Shown here one piece after another: positions 1 through 3,976 of a stretch of DNA of 64,000 nt. The notes under the pieces are model-generated. The model did not search any database. It was given only the letters and a program-made list of their open reading frames with translations, and had not been told where the DNA came from. This DNA is from Promethearchaeota archaeon. Its GTDB lineage: Archaea > Asgardarchaeota > Heimdallarchaeia > Hodarchaeales > Hodarchaeaceae. Location of the stretch: the NCBI GenBank assembly GCA_048938105.1, contig JBHLMN010000014.1, positions 1 through 64,000 of the forward strand. The letters are read 5' to 3'. Within the stretch, counting starts at the first letter, position 1. Every line of letters begins with the position of its first letter. The position numbers were made by a program, and so were the translations under genes.

Positions 1-1447
1 CATTGACCAGGAACCCTAGTGCTTTCGGCGGTATGGATTCTCACCACACTTTGCTGCTTACTACTACCGGGATTTTCGGTATTGGTCGGTCCAGTGGACG
101 TTTCCGCCCACCTTCTGTCCAGCCAACACGCCTGCATACCAAATTACGTCTCGTGTACGTATTCTGGGGTATCGGAAGTGGGTTTAGCCCCGTCCATTTT
201 CAGCGCCTCGGAACTCAGCGAGTGAGCTGTTACGCACTCCTTAGAGGGTGGTTGCTTCTAGTCCTACCTTCTCGGTGTCTCAGTCCCGAGACTGCCTTCT
301 GTTTGACACTTAACCCACATTTAGGGCCCTTAACCCCAGTCTGCGTTGTTCCGCTTTCGGTCGTGAGGCTTACCCCCACGTACCCGTCTGCCGGAGTCTA
401 CGAGGTTACCGCATTCGAAGTTTGAAAGAGGCCCAGAGATTTTACTCTCCGGGTGACTCAATCCGGGCTCTACCACGGCAACTCTCTCGTCCGACGCTGG
501 ACTGTGGTCCACTTCTGCAGGAACCAGCTATCACGGGTTTAGATTGGTCTTTTGCCCCTTCACCCAGGTCATGGGAGCCAGTTGCACTTGAGCATCCGTT
601 CGCTCCTCCACGAGAGTTTCCCCTCGCTTCAAGCTGCCCAGGCGAAGATCAACCCGTTTCTGGTCTTGCCCCTGTGACTCCGCGCCTTTTCAGACGCCGC
701 ACCTCGCCTTACGGTTGTGTGCTTGTCGCTTTCGCTTTGACTTCGTGGATGATCCACTTAATCTTGCCACAGAGGTAAACTCCCCGGCCCGTGTTTCGAG
801 ACGGACAGCGTGACCCCGATCCACTCCAATCGGTCCTGTCGTTACCGACGTTCTCTTCTTGGAGTCTCGACTCTTTCGGGCCACACACGTCTGTAACCAT
901 GCAATTTCAGGTACTTTTCACTTCCCTTACGGGATACTTTTCAACTTTCACTCACGTTACTAGTGCGCTATCGGTCACGGGGTGTATTTAGAGTTGGCAG
1001 TTAGTGCCTGCCGTCTTCACGCGAAATATCCAATCCACGCTACTCGGGAGTCCCCTACGGCTGAAATACTTGCATCTACGGGGCTATCACCCTCTATGGC
1101 GCAGCTTTCCAGGGGTCTTCGACTTCATATTTCAGTCGATGTTGGGGGTCCGCACTCCACATTTCCGTGCCTTCGCAGGCAGGATTCGGTTTGCTCTGTT
1201 CCCTTTTCACTCGCCGTTACTCAGGGAATCGCGGTTGCTTTCTCTTCCTCCGCCTACTAAGATGTTTCAGTTCGGCGGGTTTCCTTACCTTTCGGTATGG
1301 CACCGCTTATTGGGCGATGTCAGGAAGTCCTATTCGGAGATCCGCGGGTCTAAGCATACTTGCGGCTCACCGCGGCTTATCGCAGCTTGTCACGTCCTTC
1401 ATCGGCACCCGTGCCTAGTCATCCATTGCATGGCGTAGTGGCAGTCT
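1..1447 (-). rRNA. rrl: 23S rRNA, 5' half (continues beyond the left edge)
   Basis: Minus strand begins ...ACTACGCCATGCAATGGATG...GATGAAGGACGTGACAAGCTGCGATAAGCC and contains GAACTGAAACATCTTAGTA and AGTAACGGCGAGTGAA. The 5' end is approximate (+/-5 nt). Confidence 0.97.
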
Positions 1448-1570
1448 GGTGTACTTTTGAGCGGTCCTATTTCGTCTAGCTTAAGGATCACTTCAATTTT
1501 ACGATGTTGATTTTCTTTTATGATATTCTCGTCCACAGCTTGACTCGTATGAGGGTCTTTCTGGGTGGTC

Positions 1571-1692: not shown

Positions 1693-1745
<53 letters not shown>

Positions 1746-2438
1746 GCCTGCTCAACGAACCGACCATCGAGTACGGTATGACTCCGTAGTCTCTGGCAGG
1801 CCCGTCTCGCGTGCTGCGACGGGCGGTGTGTGCAAGGCCCAGGGACGTATTCAGCGCGCGCTGCTGACACGCGCTTACTAGAAATTCCAAGTTCATGAGG
1901 GCGAGTTGCAGCCCTCAATCCCAACTGAGACGAGCTTTGGAGATTACCGTCACCTTTCGGTGTTGGAACCCTCTGTACTCGCCATTGTAGCCCGCGTGTA
2001 GCCCTGGGCATATCGGGGCATACTGACCTACCGTTGGCCCTTCCTTCCTCTCACTTTTTCGCGAGCAGTCCCGCTAATGTCCCCGACGACCCGGGGGTCT
2101 CGCTGGCAATTAGCGGTAGGGATCTCGTTCGTTGCCTGACTTAACAGGACACCTCACGGCACGAACTGACGATGGCCATGCACCTCCAGTAACACGTCAA
2201 GCAGTGTCTTCAGCAGGACAATCATTCATGTTACGGCCCAGGTGAGCTTCCCGGAGTTGAGTCCAATTAAACCGCAGGCTCCACTTCTTGTAGTAGGCCC
2301 CCGCCAATTCCTTTAAGTTTCATTCTTGCGAACGTACTTCCCAGGCGGCGCACTTAACGCTTTCGCTTCGGCACTAGACAACGTCTTGCATTGCCTAACA
2401 CTTAGTGCGCATCGTTTACGGCATAGGACTACCCGGGT

Positions 2439-3189
2439 TTTTAGCGAGGTGTTAAAAATAGGCTTTTACACGTTTTAATTTTGCTGGATGAAGTATAGGA
2501 ACAGTTTTGATGAATTTAATGGCATCATCTTTTCCATAAATATAGATTTCATAATTTTTTTGCCACTTTTCTCGTTTTCGTATGCGTGTACTGTAGTTAA
2601 TAGATTTTTGGTCAAAAAATTCTTGGATATATGACCAAATTGGTTTAGAGGTGATGGCAAAATCGATTTCAATTTGTCTTTTCTTTAGGCTGCCTTCTGA
2701 ATCGTATAGGCCTGCAATATAATAAGCTTGATGATTTGTAGGGAAATTTGTAAGGTAAGATGGTAGTTTTTTCAGCGAACATCTTACCGATCCAGCTGTA
2801 AATTCTAAGACTTCTATCAGGTATCGAAAGATGATACTTGATTTTACATGACTATAATATGAGGAACGGTTTGAATCATGATAAAGATTTAAGGGGAGAT
2901 TGAATAATCGTTTAAATAGTGGTTGAAGAACATTTTGATGGTATTCGATATTTTTATCTGTGATTAGTATTCGATTTGATGAGAGATTACCGTCTCCATG
3001 CATTATCCCTATGAATCTGCATAAATCCTTATTGATTTTATGTGGTAATTTGACTCTATATCGGGATCCTTTACAATAATAAAAAGAGTCAATAGTTTTG
3101 ATATCTTGATGACTTTGTAAGAATTCTTTAAGATTCAACAATGTTACCGCTCAATTTTTTCGTGTCATGTTTGTTTATTAACACCCCGT
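2439..3189 (-). mobile_element. Archaeal BHB-type 16S rRNA intron (751 nt), inserted after about E. coli position 793
   Basis: Central helix TTAG/CTAA, bulges ATA and AAA, 11-bp terminal stem CGGGGTGTTAA/TTAACACCTCG. Cutting after the second nucleotide of each bulge restores GGATTAGATACCCGGGTAGTCC exactly. AT-rich relative to the exons. Confidence 0.96.
2452..3141 (-). CDS. Intron-encoded double-motif LAGLIDADG homing endonuclease
   Basis: Motifs FIGIMHGDG and YIAGLYDSEG about 95 aa apart. TTG start. The stop codon lies inside the intron terminal stem. Confidence 0.93.
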   Translation of the reverse strand: MLNLKEFLQSHQDIKTIDSFYYCKGSRYRVKLPHKINKDLCRFIGIMHGDGNLSSNRILITDKNIEYHQNVLQPLFKRLFNLPLNLYHDSNRSSYYSHVKSSIIFRYLIEVLEFTAGSVRCSLKKLPSYLTNFPTNHQAYYIAGLYDSEGSLKKRQIEIDFAITSKPIWSYIQEFFDQKSINYSTRIRKREKWQKNYEIYIYGKDDAIKFIKTVPILHPAKLKRVKAYF

Positions 3190-3976
3190 ATCTAATCCGG
3201 CTCGCGACCCTAGCTTTCGTGCCTCACAGTCGGACCCGTTCCAGTGCAACGCCTTCGCCACCGGTGGTCTGCATTGGATTATCGGATTTCACCCCTACCC
3301 AATGCATACCTTGCACCTATCCCGGTCCCAAGACGCGCAGTATCCCCCGCCCGCGCTAGGCTTAAGACCCAGCATTTCACGGGGGACTTACACTGTCCTG
3401 CTACGCACACTTTAAGCCAAATAAACACGCCCACCACTCTAAGAGCTGGTTTTACCGCGGCGGCTGGCACCAGTCTTGCCCTCTCATTATTCGCCAAGCT
3501 ATGTACACTTGGCAAAAGGCGTCCGTTGGGACACCACTCGGATTAGCCGGCTCACGCTTTCGCGCATTGGCCAGTTTTCGCGCCTGCTGCACCCCATAGG
3601 GCCTGGCCCGTTGTCTCAGTGGCCATCTCCGGGCTACCACTCTCATGGCCCGTACCGATCGTCGCCTTGGTGGTCCCTGACACCACCAACAAGCATAATC
3701 GGACGCAGACTCATCCTCAGGCGCCGTGGCTTTGAGTGCGAAGCCATTCCAGTAAATCGCACCTATAGGGAATTATACCCAGTTTCCCGGGGGTATGCCC
3801 TACCTGAGGGTAGATTATCTACGCGTTACAGAGCAGTTCGCCAGGCGAACGAGTCGCCTCGACTTGCATGACTTAGTCCCAATCCGATAGCAGTGGGCTC
3901 CGTCAGGATCGAACGGAATTACACGGAAGTTTTTGTTCCTTTTTTTGAATGAAATGGAATTTAATTAAACGGAGGT

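Follow-up and report, generated by a model that had tools for sequence, protein, structure and literature searches.

A bulge-helix-bulge intron with an intact LAGLIDADG endonuclease gene at position 793/794 of an Asgard archaeal 16S rRNA gene

A published catalogue of archaeal (Thermoproteales) 16S rRNA introns lists 13 loci, at positions 374, 548, 722, 781, 803, 901, 908, 919, 978, 1093, 1205, 1213 and 1391 (Jay & Inskeep 2015, PMC4496867). The 16S introns of Thermoproteales and Desulfurococcales are spliced by proteins at a motif termed bulge-helix-bulge (BHB), lie at highly conserved sites where they interrupt 'universal' primer sequences, and coexist as homing-endonuclease-bearing, decayed and short hairpin forms. 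The same properties recur in the intron family examined here, one member of which interrupts a 16S gene in the first 64,000 nucleotides (nt) of contig JBHLMN010000014.1 of a Promethearchaeota archaeon (Hodarchaeales); this whole stretch is called the window below. Whereas the hosts of the described introns are Thermoproteota, the host of the window is an Asgard archaeon, and its insertion point, 793/794, is uncatalogued. Position 793 is absent from the 13-locus list, where 781 and 803 are the closest entries (PMC4496867). Literature searches for 16S BHB introns of Asgard archaea (including Lokiarchaeota and Hodarchaeales) or DPANN, or for position 793, returned nothing specific. On the strength of sequence comparison and structural modeling, the element is very probably a BHB intron in helix 24 (h24) of the organism's single 16S gene, with an intact, selected gene for a monomeric two-domain LAGLIDADG endonuclease; we infer its splicing, the translation of the enzyme, DNA cleavage and current mobility. 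The element is of a textbook kind, at a site that seems uncatalogued in print yet is common in sequence data, and an intact copy with an endonuclease gene is new to this host lineage.

The encoded protein, of 229 amino acids (aa), can be compared with two well-described intron enzymes. I-DmoI, from the 23S intron of Desulfurococcus mobilis, is the prototype archaeal monomeric enzyme and has one Asp and one Glu at its active centre, as does the window protein; the folds match with a template-modeling (TM) score of about 0.7 on the target, at an identity of about 18%. The two differ in that the I-DmoI intron lies in a 23S gene whereas the window intron lies in 16S, and in that the N terminus of the window protein is extended by about 35 residues, a segment similar to intein endonuclease domains. 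I-Tsp061I, the enzyme of a Thermoproteus 16S intron, has the same two-motif LAGLIDADG fold and was the third Foldseek hit (E 3.7e-10), but its identity to the window protein is only about 21%. Within the Asgard archaea, Wu et al. 2022 (PMC8813620) described the HeimM2 element, which in Ca. Heimdallarchaeum lies between a tRNA gene and the 16S gene. Judged by layout and description, it is likewise an rRNA-intron-type endonuclease gene tied to a single Asgard 16S gene (PMC8813620).

The minus strand of the window carries an archaeal rRNA operon, in which the 16S gene (3919..1695) precedes a 23S gene represented by its 5' half, running from 1450 to where the contig ends. The archaeal small-subunit rRNA model Rfam RF01959 matches the minus strand at 1695-3919 with 1318.7 bits over model positions 1-1478, a span of 2225 nt, and this is the sole 16S gene of the 5.85-Mb assembly (one Rfam match genome-wide). 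The complete gene (1695..3919, minus) is made up of exon 1 (3190..3919, 730 nt), an extra block of 751 nt (2439..3189) and exon 2 (1695..2438, 744 nt). Placement of the insert at exactly these coordinates, as in the preliminary description made from the sequence alone, is confirmed by the Rfam span and by reading of the exons. The GC content of the insert is 31.7% against 57% in both exons, and it occurs once in the genome. Without it the 16S gene measures 1474 nt, the length of the intron-less 16S gene of a genome of the same genus (G002), and the spliced junction, GGAUUAGAUACCCGGGUAGUCC, is identical to that of the intron-less same-genus 16S genes. For E. coli numbering we take the universal 785F/806R primer region to begin, as the primer nomenclature implies, at G785 of GGAUUAGAUACCC. 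Exon 1 terminates ...GAGCCGGAUUAGAU, its end ...CCGGAUUAGAU reaching U793, and exon 2 opens ACCCGGGUAGUCCUAUGCCGUAAACGAUG, its start ACCCGGGUAGUCC beginning at A794. In E. coli numbering U793 and A794 flank the insert, which falls in the h24 loop ('790 loop'). Redundancy of A and C at the junction permits three formal placements of the insert, and it is fixed at 793/794 because of the BHB rule and the comparative data given below.

To the junctions we applied the BHB geometry of archaeal tRNA introns, in which four central-helix bases, a three-base bulge and an outer helix follow one another and the cut falls after the second bulge base. Read in this way, they form a 4-bp central helix of UUAG with CUAA, a 3-nt bulge on each strand (AU|A and AA|A) and an intron stem of 11 bp. 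The 5' strand of the central helix, UUAG (U788-G791 of exon 1; 3192..3195, minus, as are all features of the motif), pairs with the intron strand CUAA (2441..2444). The 5' bulge, A-U|A (3189..3191), is predicted from the BHB rule and from related introns to be cut after 3190 (U793), and the 3' bulge, A-A|A (2438..2440), is predicted from the rule to be cut after 2439, which would give the ligation product GGAUUAGAU^ACCCGGGUAGUCC. The intron stem (helix 2) joins CGGGGUGUUAA (3178..3188) to UUAACACCUCG (2445..2455) through 11 contiguous pairs, its 3' strand overlapping the stop codon UAA (2454-2452) of the open reading frame (ORF). On the exon side, C795 and the CCGG of 796-799 occupy 2433..2437; this CCGG pairs with 3197-3200, so that the exon helix, CCGG(783-786)/CCGG(796-799), is the native h24 stem. 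A central helix of the opposite handedness, CGGG/CCCG, was also considered; it needs an 11-nt bulge and was dropped given the tRNA 37/38 geometry and the comparative data.

This geometry is common to four 793/794 introns of three lineages: those of the window, of loci L035 and L034, and the 46-nt ORF-less mini-intron of L038, the last three having been reached by way of homologues of the ORF. The L035 intron is also 751 nt long and is 85% identical to that of the window, with 16S flanks identical at 198 of 203 positions (97.5%). The L034 intron (662 nt) lies in a host 16S gene only 68% identical to the window 16S. Its 9-bp stem, UGAGCUAAG/CUUAGCUCA, shares nothing with the window stem sequence, yet is fully paired (compensatory). 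The central strand of this intron, CUAG, keeps its pairing by means of U·G and at the same time supplies the ORF stop codon.

For a wider comparison, one genome per prokaryotic species was scanned for a pattern at the 3' junction, namely CTAR followed by two free bases, ACCC and conserved exon-2 bases; organism names are given as written in the database records. The scan found at least 120 stretches, of which 80 loci were analysed, and the census is a lower bound since the pattern required CUAR and the conserved exon-2 bases. At 77 of the 80 loci an intron of 23-746 nt stands exactly after GGATTAGAT, giving at least 77 species genomes with a BHB intron at 793/794. The other three are two bacterial 16S genes that natively read GGACTAGAT and one locus that lacks an upstream exon within range. 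In 69 of the 77 listed introns the bulges are directly adjoined by four or more contiguous pairs, formed by 53 different five-base strands; the central-helix partner is CUAA or CUAG in all 77, but the scan pattern itself demanded CUAR. The predicted BHB structure is, on these alignments, backed by covariation among related introns. In 13 of the 77 the first intron base is U or C, not A, so that a mature GAUACCC requires the 5' cut after U793, with A794 coming from the 3' exon; read as sequence evidence, these introns independently confirm the predicted splice bonds.

The genome encodes the RtcB ligase and two EndA paralogues (188 and 218 aa), both of which contain the N-terminal and the catalytic domain. 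On contig C38 (59769-60023, 26778-27038, 22018-22119) the two full paralogues are accompanied by a third short EndA fragment with an in-frame stop. In the mechanism that we propose, exon bases U788-G791 of the precursor rRNA would pair with the intron CUAA, the intron ends would close as the 11-bp stem and the native h24 stem would close the other side. EndA, built from the two paralogous subunits, would cleave after the second base of both 3-nt bulges, and RtcB would ligate the exons to GGAUUAGAU-ACCCGGG, the intron probably being circularised. The endonuclease would be made from the precursor or from the excised intron. It would then cleave intron-less copies of the universally conserved 16S sequence, and repair would copy the intron in (homing).

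The endonuclease gene occupies 2452..3141 (minus) with a TTG start and a TAA stop; at the start codon the closest copy, that of L035, has GTG. The protein matches Pfam LAGLIDADG_3 (PF14528) at 7.3e-9 and 36.2 bits against a curated cut-off of 22.5, the profile covering the second domain only. Motif 1 (LCRFIGIMHGDGN; 2986..3024, minus) reads ...FIGIMHGDGN and contains the catalytic D50 (GDG; 2992-2994), and motif 2 (YIAGLYDSEGSL; 2686..2721, minus) reads ...IAGLYDSEGS and contains the catalytic E149 (SEG; 2695-2697). The uninterrupted 229-aa ORF with acidic residues in both motifs, as first described, holds up well on comparison: both motifs, D50 and E149 are unchanged in 10 homologues of 50-84% identity, intron-resident and free-standing alike. 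An AlphaFold (AF2) model built on the homologue alignment has a predicted local distance difference test score (pLDDT) of 90.4 and a predicted TM score (pTM) of 0.89, and consists of two alpha-beta-beta-alpha-beta-beta-alpha halves. The closest solved structures found with Foldseek are the TliVMA intein endonuclease domain, I-Tsp061I, PI-PfuI and I-DmoI (probability 1.00, E 6e-12 to 1e-8). A sequence-profile search of the PDB yields the same set, with PI-PfuI best (2.4e-6) and the TliVMA intein also among the best. The earlier remark that the N terminus is of intein type is fair, because the pairwise alignment of the protein with the intein starts at YRVKLPHKINKDLCRFIG.

A 229-codon open frame in DNA of 32% GC is, given the homologues and the confident fold, far beyond chance. 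Purifying selection on the gene is indicated by a ratio of nonsynonymous to synonymous substitutions (dN/dS) of 0.15 against the L035 copy (84% identical; dS 0.61). We conclude from sequence and model that the protein is a monomeric two-domain LAGLIDADG homing endonuclease, intact and maintained by selection, which would cleave DNA. The genome has 16 LAGLIDADG_3 matches, most of them within open frames of 900-2600 aa, whose length suggests inteins. The intron enzyme and a 314-aa open frame at G000:C44:15085-15582 are the short ones; the latter has two LAGLIDADG_3 matches, lies outside the long intein-type frames and the detected rRNA, and may be a second free-standing or intron-borne endonuclease of the same genome.

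The preliminary description had the site down as one outside the commonly listed archaeal positions. This is true of the printed 13-locus list, but the site is not rare, and its occupation in public archaeal genomes makes the novelty lower than first assumed. The wide host range that was foreseen is borne out in that 793/794 is actually occupied in many phyla: the hosts of the listed introns include DPANN, metagenome-assembled genomes (MAGs) labelled Methanosarcinales, Nitrososphaerota, Aigarchaeota and other Asgard archaea. Intact homologous endonucleases, 42-50% identical to the window protein, are found in 5 of the 77 listed introns (L089, L115, L123, L148 and L163, labelled Nanoarchaeota, Iainarchaeum and Woesearchaeota) and frame-broken remnants in another two (L093, Aenigmatarchaeota; L134, Woesearchaeota); about 70 are ORF-less. 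The DPANN introns with such enzymes (L089 Nanoarchaeota, L115 Iainarchaeum, L123 and L163 Woesearchaeota) share the insertion point, the UUAG/CUAR helix and the 3-nt bulges with the window intron. They differ in that their enzymes form a separate, well-supported clade, their hosts have small genomes, and most DPANN copies are ORF-less and 23-220 nt long.

Short forms of the intron also appear elsewhere in the census. Many mini-introns of 90-145 nt and similar sequence occur among L088-L167 in MAGs labelled Woesearchaeota and Methanosarcinales, and Asgard mini-introns at 793/794 are present in Hermodarchaeum (L090, 32 nt) and Borrarchaeum (L142, 31 nt). Three loci, L132, L135 and L144 (one labelled Aminicenantes bacterium), have a mini-intron-type 3' junction, …CUCGCUAAUU|ACCCGAG, with no recognisable GGAUUAGAU in range; longer or nested inserts, or mis-binned archaeal contigs, are possible explanations.

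Among relatives of the window organism the intron is patchily distributed. A 16S match was obtained in 32 of 80 class-level relatives, and each 790 loop recovered is uninterrupted. The intron is present in L035 and absent from the same-genus genomes G001, G002 and G016, a presence/absence polymorphism in which the empty genes have an identical target sequence; 16S identity to the window is 92.3% for G002 and 90.5% for G016. We found no close homologue of the endonuclease in the other 20 genomes of the genus, and one among 399 Asgard species genomes (G168, 55% identity), which is not intron-borne. A maximum-likelihood tree of the endonucleases, midpoint-rooted and read without any claim on the direction of transfer, parts into a DPANN-intron clade, which includes L034, and an Asgard clade, each with 100/100 support. 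The Asgard clade splits in turn into intron-resident copies (window, L035, P0002) and free-standing copies. The host of L034 has a 16S gene with a best identity of 75% among the 399 Asgard genomes, and its endonuclease groups with the DPANN copies. Given the two clades, spread of the enzyme appears, as far as the sequences tell, to have been mostly within the major host groups, while the same endonuclease lineage is found at the same 16S site in hosts as distantly related as Asgard and DPANN. The description of the intron as mobile is supported, indirectly, by the dN/dS value, by the empty same-genus genes with an intact target, and by the presence of this enzyme lineage at the site in DPANN; intact, decaying and empty introns in patchy hosts are the footprint expected of a homing cycle.

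Several observations weigh against a mobile, protein-spliced intron. The preliminary description called the BHB canonical; geometry and ligated junction are as claimed there, but an A787·C795 mismatch in the exon helix beside the 3' bulge makes the motif near-canonical rather than strictly canonical. Hetero-oligomeric EndA types tolerate relaxed BHB motifs (PMC5829648), and by analogy an EndA of this type would accommodate the mismatch. Minimum-free-energy folding of junction constructs with ViennaRNA misses the UUAG/CUAA helix and recovers the 11-bp intron stem and the h24 stem, separated by an 8x8 internal loop; although thermodynamic folding alone misses this A/U-rich 4-bp helix, the BHB geometry is retained in the four introns compared above and in the 77 listed ones. 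The TTG start has no obvious ribosome-binding site, and translation of the endonuclease is for this reason assumed. Only 4 of the genus's 21 genomes have an assembled 16S gene, so that three genomes are the basis for the absence of the intron from relatives. Lastly, the clean split of the tree into DPANN and Asgard is explained equally well by long residence with spread mostly inside each group and by frequent recent transfer.

The most probable alternative is an intron that is spliced but immobile, its endonuclease being kept for another role, for example as a maturase-like aid to pre-rRNA folding, or being vertically inherited and not yet decayed. The endonuclease tree does follow the host super-groups, the closest copy (L035) is in a host whose 16S flanks are 97.5% identical and is compatible with vertical descent, and purifying selection leaves the selected activity unspecified. 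Nevertheless, we regard this as unlikely. The catalytic acidic residues and both motifs are invariant in intron-resident and free-standing copies alike, there are same-genus genomes with an intact target and no intron, and decayed copies elsewhere show that the gene is lost once selection is absent.

Much less probable is that the insert is retained in the rRNA as an expansion segment, or that it is excised without ligation to leave a fragmented 16S rRNA. Asgard archaea have unusually large expansion segments in their large-subunit rRNA (PMC7594248), but this insert interrupts the functionally critical and universally conserved 790 loop, contains a protein gene and has a GC content 25 points below that of the rRNA. 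Moreover, the BHB is conserved, with covarying stems, in at least 77 genomes at lengths from 23 to 746 nt, close relatives are without the insert, and RtcB is encoded.

We give even less weight to an assembly artefact, in which a foreign intron-bearing fragment would have been joined to the organism's own 16S gene in a chimeric contig. The bin has an estimated contamination of 7.25%, and rRNA regions assemble poorly; the contig of the window (C9) itself starts inside the 23S gene. Against this, the flanking exons together make a complete 16S gene that is 92% identical to that of a same-genus genome, a 751-nt intron of 85% identity, between 97.5%-identical flanks, occupies this site in an independent metagenome contig (L035), and more independent contigs bear the intron family there.

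A self-splicing group I or group II intron is scarcely credible and is excluded: group I introns are known in archaeal rRNA genes (PMC6125680), often bear LAGLIDADG genes, and occur in eukaryotic nuclear small-subunit rDNA in the same helix loop, 5 nt away at S788 (PMC8395846), but the 61 non-coding nt of the window intron (48 upstream and 13 downstream of the ORF) leave no room for a ribozyme core, no ribozyme or intron family is found in its 751 nt with Rfam at E up to 10, and the BHB accounts exactly for the junctions. The S788 introns are ribozymes with another splice chemistry and give no sign of common descent with the window intron.

Close homologues of the window gene also occur outside introns. 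In four independent contigs (L031, which is G168; L032; L036/L037; and L038) 120-880 nt separate the 3' end of the 16S gene from a homologous gene, after which no 23S gene comes. Like HeimM2, these genes are outside the rRNA, whereas the window gene is inside a spliceable intron. At 54-60% identity to the window protein, the free-standing proteins form the sister clade of the intron-resident copies. Four of the genes, at L031:290-997, L032:283-990, L036:214-921 and L037:373-1080, lie 120-240 nt past the 16S 3' end. The contigs L031, L032, L036 and L037 all break inside the 16S gene, and the endonuclease genes of L031 and L036 are followed by a convergent gene for a YchF-like GTPase.

The JGI metagenome contig L038 (558-3860) has both the mini-intron in its 16S gene and, about 880 nt downstream, an endonuclease gene, P0004. 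Behind this gene stand the 3' end of the intron (…GCGCUAAAU) and then 36 nt of exon 2 (the alignment scores 55, shuffles at most 23), and the insert is flanked by diverged direct repeats, of about 120 nt, of the 16S trailer. Because the L038 gene retains the intron 3' end and a stretch of exon 2, the free-standing form descends from a 793/794 intron. Behind the free-standing copy of L032 there is no significant exon-2 remnant (the collinear local alignment scores 22 against a shuffle maximum of 26), and none was found behind those of L031 and L036. At a further locus, L039 (257-1030), a 54%-identical homologue, P0005, abuts 16S sequence from about E. coli 1040 (CGGACUGAGAGGAGGUGCAUGG...), with 256 nt upstream that are without 16S sequence; it represents a second intron site or else one more displaced copy.

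A tentative suggestion from this series is that the Asgard endonuclease lineage might alternate between two lifestyles, resident in the intron or free-standing behind the 16S gene; the free-standing enzyme would act in trans on 793/794 while an ORF-less mini-intron at that site shields the 16S gene of the host. The 8-kb loci of Hermodarchaeum, Borrarchaeum and 75 other listed intron-bearing genomes contained no free-standing homologue, and the trans arrangement is for this reason drawn from the single contig L038. 'Collaborative homing' has been described for phage group I introns, and the two-lifestyle arrangement, if true, would be its archaeal protein-spliced counterpart.

Some other features of these rRNA genes are recorded here. 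Several class-level relatives have 16S matches 40-310 nt above model length (G062, 1792 nt; G074, 1634 nt; G063, 1554 nt; G075, 1544 nt), and three genomes have a 16S match interrupted at model position 828/829, which coincides with a contig end in two of them (loci L020, L024, L025 and L027; G030, G071 and G001 matches). Further intron sites in these Asgard 16S genes are likely. In the organism itself, the 23S gene is cut by the start of contig C9 (window 1-1450; model positions 16-1422 only) and its middle is unassembled, while contig C8 contains two separate copies of the 23S 3' end (model 2721-2973) with 18 kb between them (G000:C8:27759-28068 and C8:46367-46669).

An intact, selected homing-endonuclease intron is now documented in the rRNA of Asgard archaea, the archaeal group closest to eukaryotes; in the literature searched such introns are found almost only in Thermoproteota. 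The site also has practical weight, as 793/794 lies inside the 785F/806R (V4) primer site, in the loop at which the survey primers in widest use are directed, and the listed 793/794 introns all interrupt it. Since the intron splits that site, intron-bearing lineages, the window organism included, are expected to yield little or no product in standard amplicon surveys, and annotation pipelines may mis-call their 16S genes; the argument from primer interruption was already made by Jay & Inskeep (PMC4496867). What the present analysis chiefly adds is the breadth of an uncatalogued site in a key primer target, together with the series from intron to free-standing gene in Asgard archaea. Intact, decayed, ORF-less and free-standing forms make up a natural series that can be used for studying how archaeal protein-spliced introns spread and shrink.

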